Of a stretch of 59,579 nt of DNA, positions 4,755 through 56,400 are shown piece after piece. Each line of letters starts with the position of its first letter. The stretch's first letter is position 1. The notes beneath the pieces are model-generated. The model was not told the origin of the DNA. It saw only the letters and a program-made list of their open reading frames with translations, and did no database searches. Made by a program: the position numbers and the translations under genes. The DNA is from Reclinomonas americana ATCC 50394 (lineage: Eukaryota): contig PS015122.1 in assembly GCA_048213135.1 (NCBI GenBank), positions 220,981-280,559 on the forward strand, given 5' to 3'.

Positions 4755-7237
4755 TCAGGCATCATGGTCCGCATCTGGCAGCTCCGGGTGGAACTTGCGC
4801 ACCGTTTCCCACATGGCCACTGCGAGCTGCTGGTTGGTATGGTGACGAGCAGACAGTATTGCGTGCATACGAACCACGCAAGTCGCGAACGCCCAGCTCG
4901 TGAATTGCGGCTTCGAACAAGAACTCTTCATCGAGTCCTTCCGGAGGCCGTGCGGGTTGCTTTTTTACAGCAGATGGCGGTGCATGGTGAGAGAGTGATG
5001 GGCAAAGCTCCCACGACGCAACAATAAGTCACACGCAACATCGTGCACGTCCACCACCAGCTGTCGGATGGGGTTGAAATAGGCATGGTCCAGCACCTCT
5101 TCCAGCGAGCACCGGTCATCCGGGATGAACTGCCGCCATGTAAGCATGTATGGCCGGTGATACAGCTTCTCTCTCTGCTCTCACGCCTCTCACCTTGAGA
5201 ATTTTTCCGATCAGGTCAAGTGCTGTTGGGGAACGTGAGTGCCACGAACAGGAGAAGCAGCGTGCCGCCACACACCGTCAGCAGGGCAACCGGGCAGCAA
5301 CGCTGGCCAACCGGGAGGCACGCAGATGGGTCGTCGGCGAAACCAGCTGCCCATGGCCTCGGCATACTCGCCCTGCGTGCTGCCGATGATCCATTCCCTC
5401 ATCCTCTCATCGAAGCCGACCTTGCGCATGATCTCGAGGATCTGGTGGGTCTCTGCATGCAACACGCTGAGCAGGGTGCACACGAGGAGGGAAACCTTGT
5501 CCCTCACCTGTTTGGCCGTCCAGCACCGGTTCGTATACGTCGTAATCTGCAGTCGCAATCGTGAGACGAACACGACACCTCGTGGGATGAACAAACTGAG
5601 AGAAGACAAGGCAAACCTGTGTCTGGTCTGCGCTGCACAACGAATGCCACGGTGAGCCATGCGAAAGGTAGATCATAGAGTGATTGAGAGAATACTCACC
5701 ACCAGCTTCTCAAAGTTGTACATGCGCGCGAGAATGCAACCTGACACGGTCAAGTGAGCGTGAGTAGACCGTCACACACCGAAAGGAGAAAGAAAAACAC
5801 GCACCGTAGCTCCACAAGTCGAGTGTAGGCGAGAAGGAGAAAAATAGAAAGCAGTGTCAGCAGTTGAGATCATTGCAAGAGACGGCGTCTGCAAGTCACA
5901 TATCTCGGTGGTCGTAGGGCGCTCGCGCAAGAACCTCCGGAGCACCTGTACAAGGGGTGTGACGATGACATTCTCTGATCGGGCGACAACGAATAGACAA
6001 CGCAACGGTAGGTCAATGTTTGTACGAGCGGTGTGTGCTTGTCGCCGGCGCCTGGGTTCTCGAGCATCATGCGTGACAAACCGAGGTCGCACACCTGTCA
6101 ACCTAGGTGAGGAGTGACCAGACGGCGGCACACACCCGTCGTGTTCCGGCTAGCTTACCTTGGCGCCAAGCTTCCCATCATCCCGTGTGAACAGCAGGAC
6201 ATTCTTTGCCGTACTGCACACAGCGGCTGGTGAGCGCACCGAGTACACGACAGTGCTTTCCGTGACCAGCAGTCACGCAACAGATCACGATGGAGAATGT
6301 TTGCGTCGCGCAGATACTGCAGCGCCTTGGCCATGTCGTACATGATCAGACGCCGGTTTGTCTCGCTGCGCTCGTCACTTGCTGGACCAAGGCAGTGAGG
6401 ACCCATTGAACTGCAGGCGCGAGCCATCAGAAGTTGAAAGGAGACAACGGTGGTGGTGCTCAGGGACGCAACGCCTCCAGTGAACCGCCGTCGACCAGCT
6501 CCGTGATGATGTAGACCTCCTGGAAATCCGCAAAGCGTGGACTTGGCGGTTTGAGGTCGAGCAAGCGCATGATCTGTGAACATTACAAGGGTGAGGTAGT
6601 GGCGATGGGTGTGAGAGTAGAGACCGACGACGCAACATTCGGGTGGAATACACGTGACAACAGTCGAAGCTCACGGAGCAGGCTGCAGAAGCGACATGAG
6701 ACCGATGGGGGGGCGATGAGGTGAGGCATGGAAGATGAGTAGCTGCCGTTGGACGTAGACTTTGGCACACTGGTGACTGTCGCACATGTCAGCGTCAACA
6801 CGAGAGACAGGCAAACAGATGGAGAGAGACGAAACTCCAAACGAAGAGACACACGCTAGAGGGGTCAAAGCCACATTCGTCAGTGACAATACCAACGCCT
6901 GACAGCAGAGAGAAGCCTCACCTTGACAGCCACCTCCAGCCTGCCATCATGTTCGGAAAAAATGCAAGACAACTGAGCGCCAGGAAAAGTCAGGAGACGA
7001 AGGTAGAAAGAGCATCAGACCTAGCTCTTCGACACTGTCCATCTGTGTGTGTGAGCAGTGGTGAGAGAGAGACAGGGAGAGAGATAATGTCAGATGCGAT
7101 CGTTTCTCAATGGTATTCAAGCAAGCAATCGCTGCGTAACACTGCATCGCACGCACACACAGTCAGTCAACGCAGATGCATCACCACTGGCCACACAACG
7201 CAACTGCTCCGCCACCGAGGAAACCTTCCTCAGTCAT
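4755..7237 (-). CDS. Atypical MAPK-like (CMGC) Ser/Thr kinase
   Basis: Spliced motifs FLGGGA, EVAVKR, LLRELRLL..HPN, ILHRDLTAKNVLL, VCDLGLSR, TPLVQTLTYRAPE, YDHRVDLWSYGCILA, DGQTETHQILEI, ALDLIGKILKF, VLDHAYF, and a MAPK-like tail EEFLFE...WETVRKFHPE. 5' exons are not fully resolved. Confidence 0.8.
5823..5903 (-). other. AT-AC intron (81 nt) with U2-like signals
   Basis: CAC CGA G|ATATGTGA...CTGAC...CCTACAC|TC GAC TTG TGG restores HRVDLW. No usable AG precedes DLW, and retention hits an in-frame TGA. Confidence 0.75.
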
Positions 7238-7504
7238 GTCGACAACACATTGAGCACCGACTGGCCACTCCTACATGCACGCAACCACCGAGTCAGGCGA
7301 ACGAAGGAGGGAGGGAGAGGAGAGANNNNNNNNNNNNNNNNNNNNNNNNNNNNNNNNNNNNNNNNNNNNNNNNNNNNNNNNNNNNNNNNNNNNNNNNNNN
7401 NNNNNNNNNNNNNNNNNNNNNNNNNNNNNNNNNNNNNNNNNNCGGAAGGGGGCGATAGACAACTCCGCGCAGTTTCTCCGATCCCCTGACTCGTGACAGC
7501 GTAG

Positions 7505-7993
7505 GCACTGAAAGCTCCGGACTGCGACGAACTCCTGTTGCACGAGGCGGCGACGGGGGCGATTCTGGAGGGCTCGCAGACCAACTTTTATGCGCTGTAC
7601 GATCACGACTCGGTGTTGCGGACGGCCGGCGAGGGCATCCTGGAGGGCACCGTGCGACGTGTGGTGCTGGAGGTGTGCGAACGCGAGGGCATTCCAGTCG
7701 ATCTCTCACCACCGCTGTTGAGCGAGATGGACCGGGTTCGTGCGTTCTTTGGGGAGCGCGTGGGTTTGTTGCTAATCTGTGTGGTGGTACTGCAGTGGTC
7801 GGGTGCGCTGATCAGTTCCACCTCGCGTCTGGCGCTGCCGATCGATGAAATCGCCGTGCCACAGGAGGGACAGCGAGTGACGGCCGACGACCCGCGTTGG
7901 CATTCGCCTGTATCATCACTGGCGCAGCGCATCTCGCAGTGGGTGGCCGAGGAGGTCGATGCACACAGCGAGTTGTTACCGCCGTCATCGTAA
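7505..7993 (+). CDS. Aminotransferase class IV (PLP fold IV; DAAT/BCAT/ADC-lyase-like), 3' part; 5' part in or before the N gap
   Basis: DELLL...GAILEGSQTNFY...GILEGTVRRVVLEVC...GALISSTSRLALPIDEI match the fold-IV EG..xNF and ILxGxxR motifs. Confidence 0.8.
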   Translation, partial: ALKAPDCDELLLHEAATGAILEGSQTNFYALYDHDSVLRTAGEGILEGTVRRVVLEVCEREGIPVDLSPPLLSEMDRVRAFFGERVGLLLICVVVLQWSGALISSTSRLALPIDEIAVPQEGQRVTADDPRWHSPVSSLAQRISQWVAEEVDAHSELLPPSS

Positions 7994-8019
7994 AAACAAA
8001 CAGGATGGCGATTCACTTA

Positions 8020-11000
8020 TTACTTGATTCCACCTCCGTTTGGGTGATGTCGCAGTCGCTGCGAGATGGCCTCGCACCAGTCGGCGCAACTTGCAGCGTC
8101 CTCGGCTGTGAACAGGAATACGCGACCGGGTGTCACCAGCTGCGATGATCCAGATGAGAAGGGATGAAAACGAAGCAAGAGCCACACGTCACCGACCTGC
8201 AGTGTGTTTGCGGCAGCACCAACGCGATCCGGAAACGCCAGCACGGTGCAGTCGCCGGCCTCTTGCAGTGAGATGGTGCGCAGCGGCTTGACCGCCCGCT
8301 CCGTTTTGAAATACGAGAGCGAGAATCTGTGCAGCACAAACCACCGCCGCTTCCAGTTCTTCACAAAGCCACCGCGCTTGCTCAGCCACCCTCTGCTCCC
8401 ATTCTCCGTCAGCACTCAATCCCCTGCAGTGCACAACCGAAAAAAGTAGACGCAGCTGCTTGTCAAACATGAGCGCCGTCGACCCGTGTCGTAATGGCTC
8501 GTCATCCACGTCTGCCGCCGCCGCCGCTGCCGACGATGTTGTCGTCGCAGCAGACCCCCTGTAACTCTGTGCACTGCTGGCAACCAACGCCACCTACGTG
8601 TGCGCAAGGTAAGTGCCAACACGTGCTTGCGGACGGATGGACAAAGACAAAGACGTGCCTCGGCCAGCGACACCTCGCGTCCATGTTTCCTGAAATACCG
8701 CGCGAGCTCAGCCGGCTGAAACAGCACGAGAGAGACGGGTGCTGGCGGAAGCAACTATTGTCGAATTGCACACACGCAGTGAGGCAGTGTAAGCGGACGA
8801 CTCACTGCATCGCTGCGCCTCACCGATCTTCTCAACAGCGGCAGCGACAGACCGAGTCGCCATGAACTGAGATCCTCATCGTGCATCTGTTGCGCCAGAG
8901 CGACGGCTCGCTCACGATGCCTCTCGCGCTCATCCGCCTCCTCGACCACGGTCGATACCAGCGTGTGCGACAAGACTGTGTGATTGATGAGCATCTAATC
9001 GTTTTTCTCACGCACCCACCTTGGTCACTCACCTAGCCACTGATCGACGGCCATCGGTACCGGCGACTCCACCAACTCACGCCGACGTGACAGCGTGTCC
9101 ACTGCATGCAGCAATGCATCTTCCTTTTCGTATCTTCCGCGACCTCGTGACGGTCGTGCCAAGGCACAAAAAATGCACGACACTGCCACCAGCACGTCGC
9201 CAGTTACCGAATCCACCGACGGATTGCGCGACACCAGTGCCGCTTGCCTGCATCCAGACAATTGTTTGTCACTAGAAGGACGGGGGGGCGCAGAAGCCCA
9301 TAGAACCTCACGCAACGTGCGGAAGCCCTCGGTCGCGTTCGAAAACTCGGCGCCAGCAAGAACATCCACCGGGTTTCCCATAACATCCACCAGCCGCGCT
9401 GTAGTCGCATGCGACGGGATGAGGAAGCTGAAGTGCGCAAGAGGAAGCTGCAGCAGCACCCATTCGCAACTTATTCTCTCCAAACCGTCGCCGAGAACAC
9501 TCATCAGCAACCGCGACGTCACAGCTGCATACATCATCATCGTCAGTACCGAGACGAAATAACCAGAGCACTGCTAATCGTACAAACCAAAGTAGAACAT
9601 GCATCGCAGCCAGGCGGCATCGTCTGTTCGACTCAATGTAGTGGCGTGCTGTGGGAAAGGGGGAAAAGGAGGTGAGCCGAAGCACAATGACAACATTTCG
9701 CGTCGGGCTGCGCACCTCGTCAAGCCGAGCCGACTGTTCGAGGAAAAACTGCGGATCACCAGCGCGTCAGCAAACAATGTCTTTCCCCACATTCTCCAAC
9801 AAAAGCACGCACTATTTCCAACGCGCCGGCGACCGCCGCGTTGGCATCCGGCGCCAGCAGCAACCACATGACCAGTCGATCGAGAAACTCGAACAGGACC
9901 TTGCCGTGTGCCATGCGCGCCATTTGCGATCCATCCAACACCACATCCCACGGCGATCGAGTCGGTGACCCCACCAGGCGCTGCCGAATCGACGATATGG
10001 TTGTCGGTGTGGATACCATGGACGCATCGTCGTCGTCATCCGCGTCCGCAACGCGCCGACTTCCACTCTCACGATAGCCCCAAAACGTACACGTCTCCAC
10101 CGGCACGTGCAGACCCATGGTGGCCGTCTCCACCTCCTTGCTTTGCAGACCTTGCAGGTCGTGGAACAGGGCCCCACAGTCGCGCACGAATTTGGCCAGC
10201 ATCAGGAGACCAGCCTGATGAGCGACAGGAGTGTGAGCGGCACACACGCAACAACGAGAGCGAAAATGCTGAAGAATACCTCGGGAAGAGCGCGCATCAC
10301 AGCACCACTGCCGCCGCCGCCGCTGTTGCTCGACAGTTGCTGCACGATGGAGAGCGACGAGGCGGAGACCAGCGCCAGCGCATCGTCATCAGACGCAGTA
10401 TGCACCGTCAAACCCAGTCGTTCCAGCGCGCTGTGCAGCATCCAAGCACACAGCCGCTCGAACCGTGCACGCACAAGCGCTCTCCGCGCACTCACAAGCT
10501 CCCACATTTGCTCCAGTGTAGAGTGCTGTTACAATGGGGTGAGGGGGTCTGCACGACACAACGCGGCGGCAATCGACAGTGCGCCGCAACTTCCATGGAC
10601 GCACCGCCGGCGGTCGCCGATCGGCCGAAATGCTCCATCTCATTCATGAGGAGCACGAGGATGTCGGTGGAAGGGCGCGACGAGATGGCAAGACCGCGTG
10701 GCGACCCGGTGGGTGACGCCAACTCATCGCTCTCCATCGACATGCTGTCGAGTTCCAGCTGTTGCGACAACTCCGGCATCACCAGCGTGTCACTCACCGT
10801 GCCGCCACCATCGCCACTCTCGGCAATCGCCTTCGTGGCCGTCAGCACATGCAACACGCCACGTTCACCGCGCTGTGCGGCCTCCCGCAACATCGGTGAC
10901 ACGCGCGCCACGTACTCCACCAGCGTCAGCGATCCAGGAGCCGGCGTGCCGTCGACAGCACCCGTGGCCATCACCAGCACATCAGTGGCCAGCAGCAGGC

Positions 11001-11428
11001 GACGATAGGTGAGTGAGATGTGCGGTGCTGAGCGCCACGACGCTCCTGCTGCCGCTGCTGCTCGTGACAATAGATGATCACTAACGAGAGATCTCACGAG
11101 AATGATGTCAACAACAATGACTGACTGACCAGTCGAGGCTCTGGGCGTTGCTGCACCGGCCGACGATGACGACAGCAGCAGCTCGTTGACCATGACCGCG
11201 TCTTGCTCGAGGAGGCACAAGCACCACAGTGAGTGTGGTCGCCCAGCGTTCTTGGCCAGACTGTTGTGTGGAGAATGATGACATGTGGATTGATGGATGA
11301 TCAACATCAAAGCAGAGGACGTACCCAATGGCGGCCTTACACGCCTCCACTGCTCTCAGCAGTGCCTCCGCGTACGCCGCAAAGCTCGCATGTGTGCCGG
11401 TCAGCGTCTGCACAGCAACTGCGGACAT
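8020..11428 (-). CDS. Large protein with a C-terminal PH domain
   Basis: KQGWLSKRGGFVKNWKRRWFVL...YFK...PLRTISL...LVTPGRVFLFTAEDAASCADWCEAI. I checked upstream joins in frame near 9000; the N-terminal extent is inferred. Confidence 0.75.
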
Positions 11429-11742
11429 TCATTCGCCGAGTGAGGAAAAGGAAGAAGGAGAGAGAGAGGCAAGGCGACCAACGCAACTCTGACAAAAGTC
11501 TTGCCAGGTGTACATTGCCTCTCTACAGCACAAGCCGCGACGAGGATCCAAAACACGTCCTGCGCGCAGCGATGCGAAGTTGCACACATTGATTACCACC
11601 GCCTTTGTGTCGCAGAGTACTGCCCACGGAACAGTGGGAAAACAAGCACGTCGCAGTACGTACCACACAGTGCAACAACAAAAACCACGCGCTGTCCTGT
11701 GAACAACACAACGTCGATCGCGTGATTGATTGCAAACAACGA

Positions 11743-14700
11743 ATGTCAACGCGGCAAGCGCGGCTGGAACGCCGACAGGTGCACGAATCCGAGTCAAACA
11801 CTCATGCACACGCTCTATCTCTCACACACACGCGCGCGTTCTCTCATCAGCTGGCACAGAATCGGAGGAAACAGCGACCGCCCGCGACCAACAAAGGGCC
11901 ACCCATTGTGCACACAGTGGAAGATGACGATGACGATGACGATGTGCAAGCAGCAGAGGTCACTGTGGTGCCCGCGAAGAGAACCGCAGCAGCCGCAGCA
12001 ACAGCAACAACAACAGCAGCAGCAGAGAAACGTGAGTTAGAGAGAGAATATGCATTGGGTTTGCCTTGCTTGACTGATGATGATGATGAGATGATTCCGT
12101 AGCTGCGCTTCCACCGGTGGGAGCTGGGGAGATGAGAGTGTTCAATCGCACAGCGAATCGAGCGCGATACGAGGCTCGTCGGCGATGGTACGCGCATGTG
12201 CCTTTCCCCTCCTGGTTCGTACAATGTGTGAGCGTTTTTTTTCTGTGCAGGGAACTGGACGTGCTGCTGCCGTCGTTTTATCACCGTCTGCAGCAGCGCT
12301 ACGGGGAAGTGATGAATCTGGGGGCGGCGTTTGTGTCGCGGCTGTGTCGCGATCTGCGGCCCGATGAGCTGCAGCCGACCGTGTCGATTCGTGCGCTGCT
12401 GGACCTCGATCATGTGGTGGACTTGGAGGAGGAGGAGGAGGTGCGGAGGGCGATCCAATGTCTCTCCTTTGTTGTCACGTGCAGTTGTTGACGATGCTGG
12501 TGCAGAGGCAAATCGTCAATGCCGTCGCCTTGTTGAAAGACATTGGATTTGCCGTGATCACTCGCCAGGGTACGCATCGTTCGCCAGTGTCGTTGGCGTC
12601 GCCGGTGACTTGCTCCTCACCACCACGCCGTGCGACACAGGTGACCAGGAACATGTGCGCTGGCATCAGTACAACATTATTCCAGAGGCTCGCTCACTGC
12701 TGCTGGCCATTGTGCGCTGCATGTGCATGCCCGACGGTGAGGCACTCGACTCGGAACGCATGCAGCTGGTTAGCGAAGGGCTGAGCGTCGGAGGTACGCC
12801 GGCGACAGTCGAGTTGCTCACCGAGGTCAGTCAGTGTCTGGAGAAGGGATGACTGTGGGTGCGGAGATTCATTTGTCGGTGATGGTGGTGGTGGCTGCAC
12901 AGACACTGCACGAGTGGTTCGACAATCTGAAAAGCAACTGGCCGGCGCCATCCGAATCCGACGAGCCCGTTCTACCCGTGCTGCAATGCTCCACGAATGG
13001 CGCGAGTCGGCTGTACACACACTCGGTTTATGTGGGAACCAGTCGGCGGCACGAGATGGTGGCCGTCGGCATTGGGTTTGTCTCGCTGATCCAGTGATTG
13101 TGTGCATGTGTGTCGCGCACGCTGATGTGTTCCACAGCAAGAGTGAGGTCTCTGGTCATGTTCTCATGCAGGACTGGTACAAGGAGCCCGCAGAACCGAG
13201 ACGAAGTGGTGAGTCCATCAAATATACGAGGTGGAAAAACCTCAACAACGGGATCTCACTGATTCGCTTCCAGCCCTTCTTCGGTTGTTTTCCGTCATCA
13301 ATCAGCGTTTCCTTGCGCACGAAGTGACGGCCGTCTACGGCTCCTCGCTGTCGCCGTGGCGGGTGGTCGTCTACGCCTCAGGTCACCGAGAAATCACCAA
13401 TGGTGGCACGGCGTTGAGGGTGGATTTCGAGTCTGCGCAAGTTACCGCGTACTGCAAGCACCCTCCTGAGGTTTTCCCTCCTCCTTGCGTCTCACCGTGC
13501 CACTCTTGTGCCAGTTGCCGCTCGTGTCCTTCTTCCAGCCAGAAATGCGAAGTCTCTTTGAGAGATTACTGCGTCATCCGTACTGGGTGCGACATAGGTC
13601 TGTCCTGCGATTGCAATCACATTCTCGCCTGCTTGGTCTCACGCAGACGGGGTTGTGTGCAGATTTGTGCGAGGCAAGCCACCTCACCTCTCCACCCTGG
13701 AGCGGCTGCTGGCGTCCATGTTCCTGCAAGAGTGGGGCTGCACGGTGCTGGTGCTGGCAGCTCTCAGTGTCTTGTTTGGTCGGCCCTTCTGGGAGGTGTA
13801 CCATGTTTTCCATCAGGAAATACCAGTGCGTGGGGGGATGCCATGTGTTGTCGAACTCGTGCCTTCTTTTTCATTCCGCTCAAAATGCAGGGGTTCGGAC
13901 GGCTCATGGAGGAGACCGACATGCGCTTGCATGGCATACGGCATGTCAAGGAGGAGTTACGATAGATGCCTCACTCTCTCCCTCCCTTTGCCCGCGCTCA
14001 CTGATCTTGAGCGCGCGCACACACACAGGGTGCTCTTGTGGACGTCGGATGCGTGGCTCGATGACAAGTGGGGACTGCGGAGAGAGGTGGTGGAGTGGGA
14101 CGCCATGTGCCAGCTCGATCGCATGATCCGCACGCTGGCGGCGCGTGAGTGCGAGGTTGGAGTTGGCCTTGAGCCGACATTGGCGACGCGACAAGGTGAG
14201 AGTTTTTTTGGGGGGGAGACTCTTTCGTCTGTCCTCCGTCCAATCCAACTCACATTCGTACACGACGCTGCTCCAGCGAGCGTGCTCACGCTGAGTGTGC
14301 TCGAAATCGTCGGTGTGCGCGTGTGTGGCACCAAGTTGAGCGATCTGGAGCTCGTGCTGGCTGTTCCACTTTACGTGCTGGCTTCCTGCACGGTGCGTGC
14401 ATATGCGTGTCGCGAGCAAAGTACATGTGCCAATCGTGTTGCTGCAGAAGGACTCTTCGTTCTCCTTGCGTGTCCATGTTGGCAATCGATTCGCCGGCAC
14501 CGCACCGCTCCTCGAAGTGAAGTACGAATCGTCGATGGCCGTACTGAGTCGCACTGTGCCTCGTCCGGGCGCCTCGCAACTGCTCCTCTCTGTGCTGGTG
14601 CCGATTCCGAACGCCCTGCGTGGGCCAAAAGTACGTTGCATTATTCAGCAGACTGCGGCTCCTTGGTGTTGACACGCTGCTGGCAGATGGCACACGGTGG

Positions 14701-16702
14701 CTACTATATCAGTGCATCGCTCGAGGTGCAACACCCGGATGAGACGAGTCGCCTGGAGACGTCGCCAATCATCTGGTGGTGGAGTTGCGTTGTGCTATTT
14801 CCGTGGCCACGTGACACTGTTGAGGGCGCTTCTCATATGAGGCATTGTGTCGCAGAGTCTCCTCTCGGCCTGTGTCGCAGTCGTGCCGACTCGGTAATTC
14901 TGTGCAAGCCAATTGAATTTCGCGACAAGTGCCTGTACTTTGCGCAGATGGTGTTTGAGGATGTGCCGTGGTGTCTTCGCGGTGCGTTTGGTGCTTGCTT
15001 GCATTTTGGTTGTGGCACGTCTCATGGTGTCGCCGGCAGTGGGTGACTTTGTATATATTCGTCGTCACGCCCGGCTGACGATCTGTCGCATTCTCGCGCT
15101 GTGGGAGACGCGAGATGGCGAAGACGAGGGCGAGCAATTCATGCGGGTTCGAGTGGTACGTACACTGCGTCGTCGCCCATCATGAGAGCGCCATGGTCTC
15201 AATCCCCTGCACAGTTCATCCGACCTAACGAAGACCCATGGGTCCCGGCTGGCGAGCTGCCGAAGGATCTGCACGAGCGCGAGGTTTAATTTTCCTCGCC
15301 GTACTCCTTCCCCCTCGCTCTCTTCTGTGTCTCACTTGCACCTTTGTGCGGCAGGTACTCATCACTAACAACGTGGTCGAAGTCGAAATCACTTCTGCAG
15401 AAATGATCGTCGGTCGCTGCTTGGTGATTCCGCTCGACGCCGATGTGGTGGATGCGTCGGCCAGCGTCGAGACGGTGCTCACGGATGTGGGTGTACGTCT
15501 CAGCGATTTGAGTCATGTGTTCTTCTGCCGGCACATGTTTGGTGTGGAGGAGTCGCACATGATGGAGCAGGCGAGGGCGGAGGATATCTTGCCCGCCATC
15601 GAGTTGCAGCCGTCGTTGTCGTGCCACTGCGCTCGTGTGTCGCAGGTGAGAGAGTTGGAGAGAGTTGGAGAGAGAGAGCATGGATGTGGTGTGGCGCTGA
15701 CCACGTATCGGTGCAACCAGCTTGCTGAAGACAGCAATCAAGGATGGGTGTTTGATGTGGCGCCCGGCGTGCCACTGGTGCTGCGCCTGGCCGAGCAGTA
15801 CGGCATTGGTACGTCAGCGTGCAACGAGTGCATGTGCGTCTCTGTTCTCCTCATGTCTCTCGACAGAATGGCGATCGGAGAATGAGATTACCGCGGTGCC
15901 GGAGGAGCTGCGTTTGCTGGAGGCAGCGTGCGACGCGGTGATCCGCTGGCCGCTCTGCGACTGCGCGCATGTCGCACATCCAGCCCTGTCCGCCTGCCTT
16001 CCCTCGCAACGGAGCTGGCACTCGTATTTGTGCGGCGACATGCAGTTGGCGCGCCACATGAAGTGCAGCCTGGCGACGGAGTTGATGGGCGGTGCTCAGA
16101 GCGAGCCTGCGGACCCGGCCAAGGCATCCAATCGGCTGCGCATCGAAGCCCTCAGCGCCGTGTCGCCGTCCTCGGTGGCCAGCGGCAGCGGCAGCGGCAG
16201 TCAGCAACAACAACAACGCGAAAAGCAGGCGCAGCAGCAGCAGCGACGAAAACGGCCGAAGCGGAGTCTGACGGCCATGCTGCTGGCCACCGGCGGTGAC
16301 AACACTCGAATCCTCGTGCCAGAGGGCGATTCGTCGAATGGCCGTGTATCTCGATCGGGAACGCGTAGCACCGGCAGCGGAGCGCGCGGCGACGAGTCGG
16401 ACATGGACGAGTCGGTGCCAAGCAGTCAGCAGGACTGGTTCCGCAAGTCCTCCGAGGCACTGTTGACGTGCATGCTCCAGCAGCGCGACTATGTGGAGAT
16501 GTTTGTCGGGGCGCTGTGCCATCCGGCCACTGCGGACACGACAGCGGTCGTTGCCGAGAGCCAAGTCGTGGAGAGTGGTGGCGGAAGCAGCGTCAGCGGT
16601 GCGGGCAATGCCGGCGTCGCTGGCGACGGCGATTCACTCGTGCTGGACATGAGCGAGGACGAGGAGGAGGATGAGGACGACGATGATGAATATGTGAATT
16701 AA
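11743..16702 (+). CDS. Large protein with a BAH domain and acidic tail (chromatin-associated by inference)
   Basis: VGDFVYI...ICRILALWET...FMRV...FIRPNE...HEREVLITN...EMIVGRCLV...FFCRH (~15040-15540) is a BAH signature. The ORF ends EDEEEDEDDDDEYVN*. Confidence 0.7.
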
Positions 16703-17121
16703 ATCCACAGAGCAAGAGGGACGTATCTGGCGACCAAAGTCGACGAGAAGCACGAGCTCGAGTCTCGAGTACAATTCAGTTAATTAAGTTATCTAGTTGG
16801 TGTCGATAGTGTAGATCAACACGAGCCCTTGAGATGCAAATGCTTCACAGCCACACGAGTGTAAGATCTGGTGAGAGAGTTGACTGCGGATACGCGGCTG
16901 CAATTAATTATATGTATGGTATTGTGCAGCGCACGCTGATTTCGATTATCGAGAACCTCGTTGAGTTCACCTGGGCTTCTTGTGCTTCTGTCATGTTTCG
17001 GGGGGGTCTTTCGTGGGCGTCTGCCTTCAGGTTCTCAACAAAACGCAGAAACGGTCAACTACATGTATACAGGGCGATCGATCATCGATCGACGGATCTC
17101 ACTCTTCGTGTCGTTTTTCCG

Positions 17122-20100: not shown

Positions 20101-21381
20101 AGCACGCAGCACTCGTGGACCACATCCTCGGCGACCATCATTGCCTGCAGTTGGACTCGCGAACCAAGACGCTCTTGTTCGACTGGCAGTGGGGCTGGAA
20201 CAATGATGTTGTGTGCCATCATTTCCTGTGAGCCCTTGTTGCCTTGCTGCTCATTACAACGTCGATAGTCTGCACCCGCACCGACGCTGCTGCAAGTGAC
20301 CAATGCCGTCACGCAGTGCCCCTCTTTCATCGCCTGCTCGCAGTGCGCATTCCGCTTGCAACCCAGACGCATCGAGGGTGCTGGCCCCGGTCCGCAGTCG
20401 GCGGCTGCTGTGGGGCGACCGGGTCCCATTGACATCGATGTTGTTGACGTGGAACTGGAACGGGGACGAAGTCGCTTCGGTTTGTACTGTATGTGTGCGC
20501 ATCTCTCTCTCCGGCACGCGTGCACACTCACCCGTCACGCTGTTGTTGCGTGCACAGCCACCGAACATGCACAGGCGGTGAGTGCAAGCAACACACGCCT
20601 GAAAAAACGACTGGAGGATCTGCGACAGAGTGCCTCGAATAGTGCGTTGACGTCCTCGTTTGTGACGACATTATCACAACTGACTCTGTGGGTTGATCAA
20701 TTGATGCAGCACGCTGGTACGGGACCTCTACGCGAGCGCGCGAAACAGGCGGTACGTGTACAGGGAAAGACATGCACTTGTCGTGTGGATGTGTCGTCTG
20801 ACTGCTTGTACACAGCACAAACCGATTACAGGTCGCCCACTTCCGGTGCGTCTGACGTCACAATCAATAGTGGCAGTGCCATGCAGCTGCCGACTCTTAT
20901 TTCTCGTCGCAGGGTCCCAGAGTGCGCTCCCCACAGCCGGCCCCCGTCACGACGACATTGACGAAGAGGATCTTGAGGACTACATGGCCGAGCACGATGA
21001 AGGTTTTCTTTCTTTGCTGACGCATATGCGTACTCACATCACGCCACCTCATTCGTCTGTGTGCCAAGCAGCCCCGCCAGCCGTGGCGCAGCCTGGAGGG
21101 TCACGGACGTCGCCATTTGGCCGCGTAGTTGTGCGTGTGCAAGAGCCGGTATCAGTGCGTCCACACGGACGGAGCTCCAGTGCAGATCTCTCGTCAGGTA
21201 CTGTACTGTTGAACGCGCTCGATGTGCGTCACGCCTGCGCTCATGTTCTCCACCGCTGCAACACACAGCTGCCGCCGACAGCTCACCGACCGCCGACGAA
21301 CGACTGCGACGCTCGATGAGTGCTTCGGTCAACGACGCCTTCCTCGGCATCCTCGGTGAAAGCACCGAGAACGACGAGTGA
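17122..21381 (+). CDS. TRAF-type zinc finger / coiled-coil protein
   Basis: LACALCDG; CPDCG...HGQEC...CSRCG...HH; YECIERQVSCPMHRVGCPWLG...HLQQC; followed by coiled coil and low-complexity tail. The 3' end is inferred. Confidence 0.65.
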
Positions 21382-21424
21382 CAACAAAACGTGTATGCCT
21401 AATTATGCCGTTCTTATGGTCTTT

Positions 21425-28331: not shown

Positions 28332-28409
28332 AAGAAGAAAATGGTTTGCATGCACACCATTCTCTCTCTGCTCTTTCTTTTGTTTTCTTGCGTTTGTTTG
28401 GGTAATGTC

Positions 28410-33992: not shown

Positions 33993-34113
33993 TCGTAATG
34001 TAACAAAGAACAGATTACTATGTTACATTTTTGTTACACGCGCTCTCTATCTGGCGCCGATCCAACCTTTTCTCGCATCGCGCGACTCGTCACCCTGCGG
34101 TGCGTGCAATCCA

Positions 34114-38602: not shown

Positions 38603-38938
38603 GCTTCGTTGCCTCTGTCGAGATGACACCGACACGCGGAGTGTGATCGGACGTCGACGTTCGTGCTGCCGCAGCAACTTCATGTCGAAGCTTCGTATGT
38701 TGTTGCATGTAGCTTGTACTCTCATGTTCACAATGGTGAACGAGCTGCTTTTCCCCCTGATCCCCGTTGCGGAATAGCAGACGACGTCGACGTTGATCTT
38801 CTCAATTGCTGACCAGTATACACATGTACAGCTTGCCAAGTAGTCACCACCATTTACTGCCTACCTTATCTTGGTGCTACTTCACAAGCTGCTATAAGCT
38901 GTCGGTGTGTCGTTGTCCCATTTCCTATTGACGAATTC

Positions 38939-40750: not shown

Positions 40751-40870
40751 ATAGTAGTAGTACAANNNNNNNNNNNNNNNNNNNNNNNNNNNNNNNNNNN
40801 NNNNNNNNNNNNNNNNNNNNNNNNNNNNNNNNNNNNNNNNNNNNNNNNNNNNNNNNNNNNNNNNNNNNNN

Positions 40871-43273: not shown

Positions 43274-43526
43274 TGTGCGCGTGCGTGTGACTGCAACTTC
43301 GAGGACACGCTGTGAAGTGTCATTTGATCGAAGGCAGAGCGCTTGCGCATTGCACGCGAGTAGCACAAGTAGACGACGAGTCAACGTTCTGCATACTCGC
43401 CGCAGTCAGTGTCAGAGCTCGTAGTGTCGTTGCTGACGAGGCGACGTTTTTTTCAGAATATCAATTGGCGCCAAAATCCGCCGTTTCGTGATATTCGTCA
43501 GCCAGCAGCACCTGTGTATTGCAATC

Positions 43527-46500
43527 ATGCCGCGCTTTGCCCTCTCGCGCTCGCACACTCGCGTCGCTGTGCTGCGTGTGCTCTTCAGCATCGCGCTCAT
43601 CGCCCACTTGCTCGTGCACTCACTCGCAATCGCTACAAGTTGCATGCTGCTTGTGTTTGCCTCGGTCGCTCGCGCGCACGCATGTGTACCCACTGGTTTT
43701 GTTTGCCATACGCGCATTCACTACCCCCCCCCCCCCCCCCCCCTCCACCGCAGACGCCCAAACAGTGACCACCGCTGTCGCCACCAACATCACTGGCTCG
43801 ACTGCCACTCTGAATGCGTGGGTCAATCCCAACAATGTCGCCGGCGGCACCACCAACTCGTTCGACTGGTCCCCCTACGCCATCGCTCTTGGTACTCCCA
43901 GCACTGCTGTCTCCACCTTCGTAGGCACACCAGGCACCTCGGGAACGACCAATGGCGTTGGAGCAAGCGCGTTGTTGAACACGCCAATGGTGTGTGCGTG
44001 CGCGCGCGACAGCTGCCCCTGCAGTTGCATATTGTGCGTCGTACTGAGTGAGTGATATTCTCAACAGGGACTGGCTTTCGACGCCGTGGGCACCATGTAT
44101 GTGGGCGATTACGGGTTTGTGCACTTTGTCGATTGTTCTGTTGATTCATCTCTCCCTCACTCTCTCACTCGTGCGATGGTGACAGCAACTGTCGCATTCG
44201 ACGCATCACCCCTGCGGCCTCAGTGACCACGTTTGCTGGCACGACATGCGGTCTCTTGGATGGCACAGGCGTGGCAGCGCAGTTCAAGAAGTGCGTTCAC
44301 TCTCTGTCTCCCTCCCCTCTCTCGCTCTCTCCCCTCTCTTGACTCACGCACTCACTTGCAGTGTTGCCGGTCTCTCTATCGACCAAACCACTGGAATCAT
44401 CTATGTCGCCGATGTGAGTGTGTGCTGGTGGCATGCATGATCACAGCTTGATGCATTCTGCTGACTCTTTGTGTGTGCGTCTCCCGCAGTTGATGAACCA
44501 CGCGGTGCGCGCGGTCACCACAGGAGCAGCAGTCACCACACTGGCGGGCAATGGGGCGTCGGGGAGTGCCAATGCCTCGGGTGCAGCCGCCTCCTTCAAT
44601 CAGCCGATGGGAGTGGCGGTGGATTCCACGAATCAAGTGGTGTACGTGGGCGATTGGCTCAACAACACCATTCGCCAAGTGACGTATGCCGGTGCGGTGA
44701 CGACCTTTTGCGGCACTGCGGGCATGAGTGGCACAGCCGATGGTGCGTGTGCGGGAGCGGCGCGATTCGGTGGTCCCAATGGCGTGCTTCTCGTCGGAAC
44801 CACGCTGTATGTTGGTGAGCGCTGTGGGGGAGAGAGAGATTCCCTTCCTCCCGTTCTCATCTGCGCCTTTCTGCTTGTGTGCGTGAGTGCAGTCGACCGC
44901 GTGAACAACTCCATCCGCGCCATCAACACGGTGGCGATGACGGTGACGACGGTGGCGGGATCGACGAGCGGCACGTCAGGATCCACAGATGCCACCGGTG
45001 AGTTTATCATCATGGGCAACTCTGCGTGATCGTTTGCAGTCATGCTGAAAGATGCCACCAGGAACGGCCGCCCGCTTCAACACGCCCATTGGACTGACAT
45101 ACGACTCGGGAAACAACGTCATCTACGTTGCCGACGTTTCGTGTCCCTCCATTCGCCCCACCCACTGAGACGTCTTTCACCTTGATTCTCATTGTCTTTA
45201 AACACCCGGCAGTCCGTCAACAACACCGTGCGAAGCATCCGTGTGTCAGACTCATCTGTGACAACGATTGGCGGCGCAGCGGGCGTGAGCGGATCAGCCA
45301 ACGGCAGCGCGCTGACCGTGGCACGCTTCAACTCGCCTGTCCACCTCACATTCGATGCATCGACTGCATCGGTGCTGGTTGCTGATTACACCACGCACAT
45401 CATCCGTCGCCTCTCGCTGGCGTCACAAACAGTGTCTGCCACACCCGCCACCGCCACTGGCTCTCTGGCTGCCTCCATCACCGCCTCGCTGACCGGCTTG
45501 GTGACCAACTGGACATTCTACTATCGCGCTGTCGGTGTCACCTCAACACCCAGCACCATCAATGGCGCCACCGTGTCGTTCACCACCATCACCAATGTGG
45601 CTCCGACCGACATTAGCTGCTCGTCGACGACATATGTGTCGCCATCGGTGGCGAATCAAGTCGTGTGTGCGCTGCAGACGACGGACACAAATGCGGGCCA
45701 GTCTTTCACGTACTCGGTTGTCGGCGGCGCCAACAGCGCGGTGTTTTCGATCAGCGGACCGTCGTTGGTGATTGTGGCGGCGGGGCAGGCGGGCAGCTCG
45801 CTGGCGGTGACGATTCGGTCGACGGACAACGGAACGCCACCGCTGTTCTTCGACAAGGCGTTCACCATCACCACAGGTGCCGCACCACGTCTCTTCCTCC
45901 TTCTCCTGCTGCTGGTCATTCACAATTTTCTCTTTTTCTTCTTCGTTGTGTCACAGTCACCCAGTCACTGGCAACGCTCGCGGCCAACGCGGTGACAGCG
46001 TCGTCGGCAACATTGAATGCGGTGGTGGGAAACTCTGTGGCGGCCTCGACGATGAGCAATTCGTTCGAGTGGGCGCCGACACCGGCTGCATTCGGTGTCA
46101 CTCCAACTGTGACGACGTGGTTGGGCGCGGCGGGCATGACTGGTACGACAGATGGCACGGGAACAGCTGCTCGTTTCCAAAATCCGACGGTGAGGTGCAC
46201 AACGCAAAAGTTGCGAACCATTTCTGCTCACTGGTTGGTGCAGAGCATTGTACTTGATGCCTCGGGCAACGCATTTGTGTGTGATCAACAAAACCACACG
46301 ATTCGACGAGCGACGAGTGGCGGTGTGGTGTCGACATTCCTGGGAACTGTGGGAACGGGAGGCTTTGTTAACGGAATAGGCACTGCTGCGCAGTTCAACA
46401 AACCCACCGGCATGTCAATCGACTTTACCGCTGGATATATGTACTTTACAGATGTTGCGTGGTGGCGTTGTCGAGGAAAGAGTGTGTGCATCATCTCACT

Positions 46501-49352
46501 TTTGAAGGTTGCAGTTTAACAACCACGCGATTCGCGTGAGTACCCCTTCGGGATCTGTGTCAACGCTGGCTGGCAACGGATCTAGCGGCACTTCCAACGG
46601 CGCTGGATCGAGCGCGAGATTCAATAGTCCGCACAGCGTCGTGGTTGATGCGTCGAACAGAGTGATGTACGTTAGTGATTCGTTGAACCGGGCTATCAGA
46701 CAGGTGCGTGCGCTCGTCATTGCACTACTTCTTCAGTGCTCATCTAAGGTCCCCCACCGAAGGTCACATACGGCGGTGAGGTCACCACCTGCTGTGGAAT
46801 TGTTGGAACGTTAGGCTTTCTCGATGGAGCTTGTGCAACGGCAATGTTTACCCAACCCGCCGGCATGAGTCTGGACACAACAACCAGTCGGCTGTACGTC
46901 GGTGTGTGTGTGAGAGAGAGAGAGGGTTCTTCTGAGTTGCGTCTCTCCGTCGAGGTACATATGCTCACACCGAAGAGATGAACAGCTGATCGAGGACGCC
47001 ACAATATTCGTGTTATCGACATACTGGCGGCAACTGTGTCGACCCTGGCTGGTTCGCTTACCGCGGTGTCGGGATCGACAGATGCCACGGGCACCTCGGC
47101 CCTATTCAGCTCACCTGTGGACGTGACGCTGGATCGAGCACGAGGCGTTCTCTATGTTACAGATGTTGCGTGGCGTTCAGTCTCTGTTGGTGTGCATGCA
47201 TCCACTTATTCAATACTATCCGCGAAGAGGACCAATCAAACCATCCGCCAAATCGTCATTAGTACTGGTGCTGTCACAAGAATAGCTGGCACTGTGCTGT
47301 CTAGCGGATCCGCAGATGGGAGTCCACTCTCCGACGCTCGATTTCTTTACCCGGTTCGTTTTGTCACTTTTTTGCAATTCGAAGAATACTCGATACTCTC
47401 GTGCTTATTTTTGGCTCGCGAGTGTAGTATACCATGGCGCTCGATACCGCCTCATCCACTCTGTACGTCACGGGTGCGCGCGAGATTCCATGTGCTCCAG
47501 ATTTCGTTTTCGGGGTTGATCTTCCGCCTCAACATTTTCTTCGCAGATGCCGGTAACAGCACTGTTCGCCGCCTCACCATCGGCTCCACAACCATCTCAG
47601 TCACTCCGGCGTCCTCTGGCGTCGCCTCCAGCACGGCTCTCACCGCGTCTCTGACATCACTCGCTGCCAACTGGACGTACTACTTCCGTGCCATCTCCAC
47701 TTCCACCGTGCCGAGCACTCTCACCGGCTCCATCATGTCGTTCACCACCTCCAACTCGACACCGACCAGCATTGCCTGCTCTACTACCACCTATGTCGCT
47801 CCATCGACGGCCAGCATGCCCGTGTGTACCATGAGCACAACCGATGGTGATGCGGGCCAGTCGTACACGTACATCATCACCGGTGGCGCGAACAGCAATG
47901 TGTTCTCCCTGAGCGGCGCACAGTTGCAGATCACGTCGGCTGGACAGTCGGGCAGTCCACTGGCCGTCTCGATTCGCTCGTTCGACAATGGTACACCGCC
48001 GATGTTTGTCGACAAGTCATTCAGTGTGACGTCGGGTGAGTTACACGTTGTGAAAGTGTTGTGTTTCTTGGGCGGATACTGACCTCGTCTTTACGCCAGT
48101 GAACAATACACCAACGGCGGTGACCCTGAGTGTGAGCTCGTACATCCCGCCCAGCACGGCGGGACTGGCGATTGGCACGATGAGCACGAGTGATGTGGAC
48201 TCGCAGCAATCGTTCACGTATTCGGTGGTGGGCGGTGCCAGCAGCGCATTGGTGACGGTTGTGTCTGGCAATCAGCTGCAATTTGCAAGTGCTGGTGCAA
48301 CGGCGTCGCTGGTGGTGATTGTGCGCACGACCGATAATGGCAATCCTGCCATGTCATTCGATCAGACCCTCAACATTGCTGGTTTGGTGTTGTTGCGCAC
48401 TATGATGCTGATTTGCCTTTGTCTCAATCATGCATGCAGCACCCACCGTGACATCGCTGTCGGCCACCTTTGTGTCGGCACTGGCTGGTCAGTTGATAAC
48501 ACTGACAGGAACCGCGCTGGTGAACAACTCGGCCGATGCATCGGCGTATGTGCTTGGCACTCCTCTTTGTGGCGCCACAACACCGCCGACGGCCGTGGCC
48601 AGCACCACTGTCAGCAGTGCCTTTGGTAGTGCGACCAGCATCACGCTGACGATTGGAGCCGCGGGAGCAGCTGTCGGCACATACGAGCTGTGTACGCGAT
48701 GGGCGCCAACCAAGACATACCTGGCGGTGTCGGCATTCGCCATTGGTGAGGAACAAGGGGAAGGGAGAGCGCAGGGAGCATTCGGCCGTTGTTTGCTTGT
48801 TTGTTTGTGTGTGGAGATCTCGAGCTGTGCTTCATTTCTTTCATGTTGCTCTTCTCTCTCTCTCTCCTCCCTCTCTGTGTATGTATGTCTGTATGCATGC
48901 AAGCCTGTGTGTGTATGAGTGTGAATGAGTGTGTATGCCTAAACGAATGAGGTGTGCAGGGAGTGTTGGTCCGAGTGACATTTTGCTGTCGGGACCGCAA
49001 ACGTACTCGAGTGCAACGGTGCCATTCACTGTGGGTACACTAAGCATGGTGGATCTCAACACTGGACAGACACCGACATTCAGCATTGTGGGTGGCGTGC
49101 ACGCGGCTCTGTTCAGTCTCGTTGGTGGTAATCAGCTGACGATCTCGGTGGCTCCGCCGCTGAGCCGGCGACTGCAAGTGTTTGTGCAAGTGAGCGACGG
49201 GACGTTGACGTACACCAAGCAGTTCATGGTTGTGTATGGTGTGTGGTGGGAGGGGAGGAAGGGGAATGGCAGTAGAAGGGGGAAGGAGACAGAGGAAGGG
49301 TAGCGATGGAGAGAGATGACAGAGAAGTATTGTGATGCCGAAGCTGATGGAT
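43527..49352 (+). CDS. Secreted/surface protein: signal peptide, 2x [FN3-like domain with inserted NHL beta-propeller + cadherin-like], further cadherin-like and Ig/IPT-like domains
   Basis: Hydrophobic N-terminus; about 12 NHL blades (FNxPxGxAxD...YVxDxxNxxIR...VTTxAG); four PTxI.xS...D.D/N...FTYS.VGG...F.I.G...IRxxDNG...FDKxF units. The stop near 49350 is tentative. Confidence 0.85.
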
Positions 49353-49371
49353 GAAGGGTAGAGAGTGAAAT

Positions 49372-53447: not shown

Positions 53448-53496
<49 letters not shown>

Positions 53497-56400
53497 CCTC
53501 TCTCTCTCTCTTCCACTCACCGGTACGAATAGCCGCCGCAGACTTGGGCTTCATCTTTGCTCGTGCCGCCTCCAGTCGCGCATTGGCCACGGCGGCAGCC
53601 TGCAACAATCGATTTCAATCACCTTTCACACACAACGGAACCATGCAAAACGGGGAGGTACACGCAACATTGGCAGCCTCCGGAATGAACACATGCGCAG
53701 CCAGCTCCGTGAGACCCTCTTGTGACGATGTTTGCTTGCGGCTGTCGGTGACCAGTCAATAAAAAAAGCAAGTTGATCAGAACGCTGACAATCGTGACGG
53801 CGACCAACCTGAGCTTCCATCCCGTCTTCATGTCCAAGAACAGAAGCCAGACGGCCAGGGCCGTGGACAGTGCTGTGACTAACATGAAGAAGAGGATCAC
53901 AGAGCGGTAGCCGTACCTGTGAAAGCGAGAGAGAGAGAGAGAGAGAATGGATGAGTGCACAGTTGCGTCTCATCTCGCAAGGATGCGGTTGCGACAGAAC
54001 TTGTCCTTGATGGTGCCGGTGGCGGGAGCCATGGCGGCAAGACCCGCATTCTGAATGGCTTGCATCAGGCCATATGCCGTACCGACAATTTCCGGCTTGA
54101 CAACCTCCGGAACACACGGCCACAGGGCGGCGGCACACAGTGAGTACATGAGGCCGAGCGTGACCATGGGAATGTACGGGTTGATGGCCGTGAACGCCAG
54201 GATCGCGTGGGTGCCAGAGACGCCAGCGCATGAAATGACCACTATCGTATGTGGTAGTGAAGTGTGAGACATGTGGTGGAAAGGACCAACAAGAGTGAGC
54301 GAGTCCGTGCGTGCATGGGCGCGTGTGTGTGTGCGAGAAGGGAGAGAGAGAAAGTGTCGAGAAACTGAATAAGGATCTCCACACGCAAGCTCCTGTGTGA
54401 CCCACGCAACGGAACCACGGCTTGTAGCCGACGCGGTCGACCACGAAACCAAATATTGGCGACACCACAGCGGATACTGCGTCGCAGCATCGTCAGCACG
54501 ACTCCAAAGATGGTGACGTGGAGCGACTCACCAATGTACGGTATTGATGCCACACGACCAGCCTCGTCTTGTGACATGTGATTTTGCAGCTCAAAGTAAT
54601 TACTGCGATATGCGAGTGATGGTGGTGCTGCGTGAGTTCAAGAATGCCCTCTCTCTTTCCCCCGCTTTTCCGCACTTATCATGTCGGACGCAACGTGGAG
54701 ATGGAAACGAACGGGAACACGCCGCCGTAGAAGAGGACGCAGATGAAGAAGACCAGCCACAGGGAAAGCGGGAAGTAGCGCACATCCTTGAGGGAAATGT
54801 CGGCACTGGCACGACTCTGTCACACATGTGAATATCCGTATCCATGGACAGTGACCAGCAACACCACCCACGTACCCTCTCCTTCTCCTTGGCCTCGAAC
54901 TCCGCATCCGACAGCATGTGCTGCTCCTTGCGACGCTCCACTCGACGAGAACCCTCCTGAATCCGGTCCAAGACGCCAGAGAGCACACTGATGCCCACCG
55001 AGATGCCACAAATGATGGCACCTGGCACACACACACGAGGAGGTGAGTTTTCCCAACGCACGCAGTCGCCAATCGATACCACACGTAGTTCACGCACCGA
55101 CCCACAGCGCCGTGGCCATGCTCGATTTGGTGGCCACCGCCGGCGACACAGCCATATTGACGGCACTTCCCTGCAGTGCATCTGTCAGCAACCTCGTTGA
55201 CTGTTGGTTTCTGGAAGACGGGGCACTCAACAATTCGTGACACTGACAGCGTGATACCGAGCGCCATGGCCAGTTCCTTGCCGCTAAAGGTGCGTGTCAC
55301 GTACAGATTCTGCGCCACAGCTGCTCACCCGACAATGTTAGTTCTGCTGCACAGACTCAATGAGAAGCGAGTCACGCAACTGATCGACTCGCCACCGAGA
55401 CTGCGACGGGAGGGACGAGGCATGAGCGATGAGAGAGAGAAGGCGGGGATGACTGGGGACGCATCGACGTACCCAAACAGCGTCCTTCCGCAAATCATCA
55501 CAATGTACGAGTTGAGTGAGCCGCCAACAGCAAACAGAATCTGCCCAGCTGTGGTGATCAGGGCGTACAGAAAGCCACCAAAGCTGTGTATGCGAAAGAG
55601 AGAGACAGGGTGAACAAAAGTGCTGTGCCATTCCCTCGCAAGAGCAACGTACCGGATGCCAAACAAGGCGTCGATCAGGTAGCCACCAAAGAACACCATG
55701 AACGTGTTGGGAATCGAGTACACAAGGTAGAGCACTTGGTACTGGTTGGTGTCAATGTGAAGACTCTGCGGTGGAATGTGTGAGCGGAGAACAATGACGC
55801 GATCCGAATGGAGAGGCGCAACATCTTGAATGTTGGTCTGCAGCGCGGCTGGGTTGTCGTAGCAGTAGTACGAGCCTGCGATGGTGCCACGCACCGTTGG
55901 TCAGCGTGTCGACAGCTCAGCGTCGGGAACAAGAGTGTGCTCACTCACCAAACGACAACAAGCAGGCGCAGATGAGGAAGAACCAGCGGAACCAGAAGCG
56001 ATTCGGGTGACAGATGGGCAGTCGCTTTCTCGTCTCTGTTCGCTTCACGTCGTCGAGATCCTTGACCAGATCATCCAACATGTGCGCCGACCTCATGCGC
56101 GAGCCACCGGAAGCAAGCTTGCCGCCACCGCGTGATCCCAACGGGAACTCGTCGTCGAGGGGCGTGTTGGTGGAGAAGTTGGCGGAGGGGCGGTTCCTGT
56201 GTAGAGGAAAGGGAGTGTGTGAGCGAGGGAGAGAGAGAGGGAGGAGGAAGAGAGAGAGGGCGGGGAGAGAGGGCGGGGAGAGAGAGGGAGAGGTAGAAAT
56301 GTGAAGGTGAGGAGAGAGATACTAGAGAGGGAAGAGGAAGTGGAAGAGAAGGTAATGAGAGGGAGGAACGAGGAGGCGATTCTGGAGAGTGCAGAGGAAT

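Follow-up and report, generated by a model that had tools for sequence, protein, structure and literature searches.

We analyze a 59,579-nucleotide (nt) stretch of the genome of Reclinomonas americana ATCC 50394 (GenBank assembly GCA_048213135.1, contig PS015122.1, positions 220,981 to 280,559 of the forward strand; hereafter, "the window", in whose own numbering all coordinates are given), in which two kinds of intron start are interleaved. Beside ordinary donors of the form G/GTNNGT (class A; the slash marks the exon-intron boundary), about a fifth of the modelled introns begin with a second word, mostly GTTGCGT, whose core lies one base further into the intron (class B). Judged from DNA sequence and protein homology, on which all results here are based, the GTTGCGT donors are a real, abundant and register-shifted class. 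The explanation that we favour, with confidence slightly better than even, is that a second, sequence-retuned U1-type small nuclear RNA (snRNA), with a predicted arm near ACGYAAC, reads class B one base in. The window (56.6% G+C, with nine N gaps) reads as gene-dense, intron-rich eukaryote DNA with introns of about 55-110 nt. The genes used in the analysis are an MFSD1-like transporter (match to PDB 8r8q, E 2.6e-16), a prohibitin whose best matches stand at 70-76%, two protein kinases, an NHL-repeat protein, a HipN gene and an ABC transporter that gives weak matches only and that we take to be ABCA-like.

A first-pass annotation of the window had listed 18 donors with an extra T and had proposed a consensus of three words, GTTGCGT, GTTGAGT and GTTTCGT. 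All 18 words are present at their listed positions and strands (14, 2 and 2, respectively), preceded by T in 11 cases, C in 5, A in 2 and G in none. The consensus itself holds in part. GTTGCGT is strongly enriched, with 47 occurrences in the window, for which Markov models of order 2 to 5 predict 12.5, 15.4, 19.6 and 30.7, and its sister words GTTGCGC, GTTGCGA and GTTGCGG occur 10-12 times each. The two other words show no enrichment of their own in the window under such models (11 GTTGAGT versus 7.8-9.3 expected; 8 GTTTCGT versus 5.6-8.5), and because they stand at background we describe class B as mostly GTTGCGT plus rarer variants. Relative to modelled genes, GTTGCGT occurs 38 times in sense and 4 times in antisense orientation, with 5 occurrences outside genes; the corresponding counts are 13, 11 and 9 for the control GTTGCG[ACG], and further control words are distributed 15:11 between sense and antisense. 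In a model-free count, 3 of the 47 occurrences follow a G, versus 15% (P=0.067). GTT alone is no marker of the shifted class, since 18 of 115 class-A donors have T at +3 in the ordinary register (G/GTTTGT, G/GTTCGT, G/GTTGGT).

That a second donor class with its (C/A)GT core one base further in is commonplace, as the annotation had claimed, is borne out by an unsupervised mixture, by frequency and by homology. A self-trained gene finder without a donor model yields 263 introns, many of them noisy, and a two-component mixture fitted to these donor-blind introns gains 126 log units over a single component. One component is the ordinary class (G at -1 in 58%, G at +5 in 69%, T at +6 in 53%). The other carries the enrichment of G at +6 and T at +7 that had been proposed as a test of the two registers (T at +3 in 75%, G at +4 in 77%, C at +5 in 57%, G at +6 in 69%, T at +7 in 85%). 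We define class B by G at +6 and a base other than G at +5. After retraining with one or two donor matrices, we kept genes scoring at least 90 and introns of 50-130 nt, which leaves 196 of 249 introns (one matrix) and 200 of 246 (two matrices). Of these, 38 and 46, respectively, are class B (19-23%). The two-matrix figures partly reinforce themselves; this holds less for the one-matrix and homology figures. The exact word GTTGCGT opens 29 of the 46. Examples of GTTGCGT donors predicted ab initio only, all within 2939..49780, are 3003, 3623, 9316, 11487, 21557, 23486, 25449, 36472, 37518 and 41886 on the minus strand and 14784, 17711, 18013, 39934 and 49717 on the plus strand.

Both donor classes occur together in 9 of 12 modelled genes, and we find no difference between them in length, acceptor, next exon base or branch motif. 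Median lengths are alike (67 vs 66 nt), CAG acceptors end 39/46 class-B and 99/115 class-A introns, and the branch motif CT[ACG]A[CT], which the gene finder rewarded in both classes, is present in 34/46 and 76/115. On the exon side the classes part: a G precedes 0/38 class-B donors with one matrix and 0/46 with two, versus 83/110 and 91/115 class-A donors, respectively. The one class-B-shaped prediction after a G (41515, intron of 446 nt) was removed by the filter and is probably a mis-call. The lack of a G at -1 may not mean mechanistic exclusion, as a near-fixed 7-mer would be rare after G anyway, given that the ordinary class tolerates many words there (29 different hexamers in 91 sites). 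Separately, phase 2 is more frequent among class-B (16/46) than among class-A introns (20/115), and several introns end in AAG rather than YAG (at 4960, 47227, 46762 and 24532), two of them class B. Branch-like motifs in modelled introns include CTCAC, CTCAT and CTGAC; the textbook branch form, CTAAC, is the last branch match in just 1/115 class-A and 1/46 class-B introns, and the pairing region of U2 may be relaxed or altered as well.

The position of the cut comes from a profile-to-DNA spliced aligner that applies a flat intron cost, knows only GT and AG and holds no donor motif. The annotation had stated that most of its donors restore conserved protein, and the aligner agrees, picking 14 of the 18 with margins (the score change, in bits, when the listed site is forbidden) of 4.3-17.6 bits, except for 6006 (0.7). 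At these 14 junctions the removal of GT...AG restores frame and conserved protein, as expected of U2-type introns. The profiles were built from 40 full-length MFSD1 homologues out of 150 matches of a HMMER search, 93 of 120 prohibitins, 4 bacterial ABC sequences (3 plasmid loci), 6 prokaryotic kinase proteins (plasmid) and, for the NHL gene, 4 intron-free blades from the window's own copy; word-based homologue searches with the MFSD1 and ABC exons gave no matches. As the ABC and kinase homologues are distant, alignment margins there are small. All 38 aligned junctions are retained here, including three that are probably misplaced (54912, 35501 and 6467). The form GTT-N-(not G)-G accounts for 16 of the 38, versus 3.7% of all GTs (P about 1e-13), although this 42% share is overstated because the aligned set was drawn largely from genes that the first-pass annotation had flagged. 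A G precedes none of these 16 homology-anchored donors versus 18 of the 22 others (P=2e-7). A class-B cut at the G of GTTGCGT is well supported by homology, and these donors are presumably used in splicing.

The MFSD1 gene (window 53500-56000, minus strand) has seven class-B candidates in all and contributes four aligner-picked donors of the list, 55380, 55231, 54694 and 54410. Intron 55321..55380 begins with GTTGCGT after an exonic A at the junction GGESI/TVAQN (margin 17.1 bits, or 7.2 against a GC donor at +4); 55171..55231 begins with GTTGAGT after T at SRI/GSAVN (6.6 bits); 54603..54694 begins with GTTGCGT after C (17.6 bits, or 7.6 against the GC donor); and 54242..54410, which is 169 nt long, also begins with GTTGCGT after C (9.5 bits, or 7.7). 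The aligner adds two unlisted class-B donors here, GTTGCGC after T in 55766..55822 (5.1 bits) and GTTCTGT after A in 53917..54000 (17.0 bits). In the ATPase domain of the ABCA-like gene (minus strand), it picks 22861, 22326, 22232 and 22088. Of these, 22791..22861 (GTTGCGT after T) wins by 4.3 bits over an in-frame GT 3 nt upstream, 22259..22326 (GTTGCGT after A) falls at the junction ALIGSPR/ILVLD with a margin of 5.3 bits, 22167..22232 opens with GTTGAGT after T (6.1 bits), and 22026..22088 with GTTGCGT after T (5.0 bits).

The MAPK-like kinase (window 4755-6950, minus strand; best PDB matches of MAPK6/ERK3 type, weak) is intron-dense and leads all genes in class-B density, with 8 class-B introns among 20 modelled. 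Its aligner-picked listed donors, 6636, 6281 and 6006, are all GTTGCGT: intron 6574..6636 follows an exonic T at HPN/IMRL (9.2 bits, or 7.0 against the GC donor at +4), 6214..6281 follows T at HRD/LTAKN (5.4 bits), and 5946..6006 follows C at TY/RAPE (0.7 bit), a junction within YRAPE, presumably a kinase motif. The second kinase (minus strand) adds the unlisted GTTGCGT donors 35736, in intron 35671..35736 after C (6.3 bits, or 3.0 against the GC donor), where the ab initio models took 35731 in its place, and 34693, in intron 34632..34693 after A (3.2 bits), which ties with the GC donor. In the NHL gene (plus strand), introns recur at one repeat position, after the Asp of YVAD/YFTD/YVTD, with differing donor classes: a GTGAGT donor at 44414 and class-B donors at 45136, 46454 and 47165. 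Intron 45136..45212 (GTTTCGT after C) falls at YVAD/SVNN with a blade-profile margin of 7.1 bits, 46454..46514 (GTTGCGT after T) at YFTD/FNNH with 11.2 bits, or 7.9 against the GC donor, and 47165..47227 (GTTGCGT after T, AAG acceptor) at YVTD/RTNQ with 7.9 bits.

Support for the remaining four listed donors is of other kinds. For 29077 (intron 29002..29077, minus strand, GTTTCGT after T, HipN-domain gene) it is positional: 13 codons lead from a Met to the donor and exon 2 begins at HipN profile position 14, while the upstream exon alone has no Pfam match. Donors 5039, 32340 and 53668 come from ab initio models and frame continuity. The first (intron 4960..5039, minus strand, T/GTTGCGT, AAG acceptor) lies in the C-terminal part of the MAPK-like kinase and is picked by the donor-blind model. 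The second opens a candidate intron, 32340..32412 (plus strand, GTTGCGT after C), in a low-scoring gene of the two-class model and has zero frame-compatible alternatives within 30 nt. The third opens a candidate intron in the C-terminal tail of MFSD1 (53600..53668, minus strand, GTTGCGT after T), for which the donor-blind model took 53661 instead.

The class-B word at +1 to +7 (GTTGCGT) is the class-A word at -1 to +6 (GGTGCGT) slid by one, with one position differing, so the +1 register is its natural reading. Class B is also the stricter class, holding 3.72 bits at +4/+5/+7 versus 1.24 bits at +3/+4/+6 in class A, where the highest of 500 size-matched subsamples reaches 2.16 bits. The preference for C over A is stronger in class B (35:4 vs 44:36 in class A with two matrices, P=1.5e-4; 29:4 vs 41:30 with a single matrix, P=0.003). 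A standard U1 in the shifted register loses one pair and should therefore be compensated by A+4, A+5, C-2 and A-1, and a bulged one should benefit from G at -1. Among 46 class-B donors we find A at +4 in 2, A at +5 in 4, C at -2 in 10, A at -1 in 15 (A makes up 28% of non-G coding bases) and G at -1 in none; the strong C preference is the opposite of compensation for standard U1.

We scored 64 U1 arms, varied at positions 5, 6 and 8, on real donors versus decoys (400-500 GTs drawn from 3092 in the same genes). For G/GT donors, which serve as a positive control, the standard arm ranks 1st of 64, with an area under the curve (AUC) of 0.94 on 91 modelled sites and 0.96 on 18 homology-anchored ones. 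For class B it ranks 61-62 of 64, with an AUC of 0.37 on modelled and 0.26-0.27 on the 16 homology-anchored sites, and its median duplex energy is no better than that of decoys (-1.4 vs -1.9 kcal/mol). Class B is best separated by the arms AUACGUAACUG, AUACGUAGCUG and AUACGCAACUG (AUC 0.89-0.94), and the top arms carry G5 and A8 or G8. The best single arm for both classes reaches a minimum AUC of 0.77, while a standard arm paired with a variant reaches 0.86-0.89 for both. It is the standard arm's failure that is informative, rather than which arm wins.

Under the explanation we favour, class-B introns would be GT-AG spliceosomal introns of the ordinary kind, with the cut at the G of GTTGCGT, and would share genes and 3' signals with their neighbours, differing only in how the 5' end is read. 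Standard U1 would read the G/GTNNGT class, and the arm of a second U1 would pair with intron positions +1 to +7. This pairing would lie one base deeper in the intron than is usual, with the first G of the intron itself standing in for the exon's last G. On hand-over, G+6/U+7 would meet the ACAGA box of U6 one register out, or would meet a variant U6; because class B has neither G+5 nor U+6, U6 would have to slip one base or vary. That a second U1 exists and is in use, and all that we say of U6, we infer from the donor patterns. To the fuller proposal of two parallel intron-start codes in one major spliceosome, with standard U1 for G/GTNNGT and a dedicated U1 for H/GTTGCGT that hands over to a shifted or variant U6, we give an even chance. 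If true, a third intron class, dependent on U2 and served by a 5' reader of its own, would comprise about a fifth of introns, much as minor introns have U11. Retuned U1 arms have precedent in Entamoeba and Mastigamoeba, according to the accessible part of one study (bioRxiv 10.1101/2022.06.08.495308).

The annotation had offered two mechanisms, a variant snRNA or routine shifted or bulged pairing with standard U1 as in rare vertebrate GTTAAGT donors, and our results lean to the first. The second would have standard U1 read class B shifted by +1 or bulged at +2/+3 with protein help, or would rely on short-intron definition and a shifted U6 ACAGA register largely without U1, in either case with no new snRNA. 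We consider it unlikely, if the most serious of the rivals. It draws on the slide of the ordinary word by exactly one, and class B does have the displaced consensus of shifted sites (U+3, G+6, U+7); G+6/U+7 could pair with the CA of U6 one base out, and the introns are short (about 66 nt) with branch motifs. Human cells have been shown to use both the shifted and the bulged register (PMC4856993), and STAT3 has been proposed to involve a non-canonical register of U6 (PMC11162779), as far as the accessible text of these papers goes. However, good pairing in the shifted register is not found in class B (AUC 0.26-0.37, with A at +4 and +5 depleted rather than enriched), the G at -1 that a bulge would exploit is absent from all 46 filtered and all 16 homology-anchored sites, and a shifted U6 alone covers +6/+7 and leaves the strong G+4/C+5 unexplained. 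We find it improbable that one retuned U1, for example with a Mastigamoeba-like ACGUAC or ACGCAC arm, serves both classes, pairing with class A in the normal register and with class B shifted. In its favour, GTGCGT equals GTGAGT in frequency among class-A donors and leads those that follow a base other than G (9/24), and AUACGCACCUG with a model GUUGCGU site gives -8.1 kcal/mol. Yet the standard arm is better at G/GT donors (AUC 0.94 vs 0.92 and 0.83), arms of the ACGUAC/ACGCAC type separate class B weakly (AUC 0.62-0.65), and non-G class-A sites show no significant enrichment of C at +4 (P=0.42-0.48).

Very improbable, in our judgment, is that class B results from a wrong cut (a G/TT donor, a GC donor at +4, a GT at +6, or both ends slid by one), from T insertions in the assembly or from copies of one mobile element. 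A G/TT donor was never picked at GTT sites when allowed penalty-free (5 regions, 3 intron costs), the frame-preserving GC donor at +4 won at none of 14 junctions, with 13 losses and a tie at 34693, and a GT at +6, where the aligner resorted to it, scored 6.6-17.6 bits worse. The protein does less to separate the slid-ends variant: among 13 junctions, GT-AG is favoured at 4 and the slid form at 3, with identical outcomes at 6, but the variant would need introns ending in AG+N. Also on the side of a wrong cut are the tie at 34693, the four of 18 listed sites whose support comes from outside the alignment, and the GTTGCGT at 6472, one of the 46 ab initio class-B donors and a site outside the listed 18, over which the aligner preferred 6467 by 5.7-7.3 bits. 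An assembly error would not be specific to strand, motif and exon base, and an introner family finds no trace in the 11 BLAST pairs (E 0.01) among 200 introns, none of which joins two class-B introns. Minor (U12-type) introns carry an RTATCCTT donor and a TCCTTAAC-type branch site; class B has GTTGCGT and the branch motifs of class A, and we reject this assignment.

Several points tell against a second U1. For any conserved motif, some complementary arm will reach a high AUC, two arms outfit one by construction, and our duplex energies leave out pseudouridines and U1-C/Luc7. Thecamonas and Micromonas have C at +4 yet standard U1, in the accessible part of the same survey (bioRxiv 10.1101/2022.06.08.495308), so donor logos do not always predict U1. 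The accessible text of two further papers has U1 mark the site only roughly and U5/U6 set the cut (PMC11732430, PMC11162779), and the class-B motif could therefore be a U6-stage or protein signal. The window holds no U1 or U6 gene (0 Rfam matches at gathering threshold), and a metagenomic pattern scan for U1 with an ACGCAAC arm gave 2 matches, both in bacterial-looking coding DNA and neither an Rfam U1, a blank that says little as the pattern was built on assumed loop motifs and one guessed arm. Short U1/U6 motifs are likewise absent from the window, apart from donor reverse complements and a few further matches.

Our literature search found no published description of a GTTGCGT donor class, with most subscription papers outside its reach. 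Human atypical 5' splice sites, at which U1 pairs shifted by +1 or bulged at +2/+3, were reportedly described by Roca and Krainer in 2009 and by Roca et al. in 2012. The accessible portions of later papers give these registers (PMC4856993, PMC11162779), put non-canonical registers at about 1.5% of human sites and have U6 pair with G+5 and U+6 in the normal register (PMC11162779). Like human shifted sites, class B is GT-AG, with a consensus resembling the ordinary one with a base added between +2 and +5, and G+6/U+7 replace G+5/U+6. Unlike them, it makes up 19-23% of modelled introns, >10x the human figure as given there, and, with G+4/C+5, it does not fit standard U1, which the human shifted model site ACA/GUCAAGUAU does match (table in PMC4856993, the part available).

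Other protists offer partial parallels. In the accessible part of Roy and Bowser (bioRxiv 10.1101/2022.06.08.495308), Entamoeba has GUUUGU(U) donors and a U1 arm ACAAAC, and Mastigamoeba balamuthi has GUGCGC donors and an arm ACGUAC. There, as here, an atypical donor word is best explained by a changed U1 5' arm; that text gives one changed U1 candidate per species, in the normal register, whereas here two classes share genes and one is offset by a base. Nor does the window show the single dominant donor of co-evolved U1/donor pairs, as class A makes up 110-115 of about 200 introns and fits standard U1 best. The diplonemid S. specki has two U1 genes with different 5' ends (PMC12621601, accessible text) and resembles our case as a protist with a standard and an alternative U1 arm, the second arm being predicted here. 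In S. specki both arms pair comparably with one donor logo, and the portion of that paper available describes no second, register-shifted class. Class B also resembles the published donor split by exon-final G, in which sites without an exonic G carry a stricter intronic word, but both classes of that split keep G+5 and the normal U1/U6 register, whereas class B lacks G+5 and has its core at +6/+7. Minor introns, read by U11/U6atac, likewise have a strict second donor word and share their genes with ordinary introns; unlike them, class B has a word other than RTATCCTT and branch motifs and acceptors in common with the major class.

The distance from U1/U6 pairing to the cut is usually taken as fixed, and register shifts count as rare exceptions. 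With G+5 missing from a fifth of its introns and their core at +6/+7, such an organism would put to a natural test, on the scale of a genome, how the spliceosome measures the 5' cut. Were a second U1 behind this, it would illustrate how snRNA duplication can give rise to an intron class with a reader of its own, a living model of how the minor spliceosome arose. On the practical side, about one intron in five in this lineage would be wrongly annotated by gene finders trained on GTRAGT.

Some features of the genes themselves deserve mention. In the MAPK-like kinase, the activation segment is HTPLVQTLTYRAPE, without the usual TxY spacing. The ATPase domain of the ABCA-like transporter (window 21428-26370, minus strand) looks degenerate when set against what we take to be the usual motifs, with AHRGAGVS at the Walker A region, ACTPDTRRR at the signature region and a Walker B, VLDSPT, that lacks the usual Glu. 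The NHL gene (window 43600-49300, plus strand) encodes a large, secreted-looking protein in which many NHL blades alternate with Ser/Thr-rich, cadherin-like repeats. In the CKS1 gene (minus strand; 51278-51330 and 52550-52719; Pfam CKS), the apparent exon 1 lies downstream of exon 2, with N gaps nearby, which probably reflects contig misordering in the scaffold or two partial copies.

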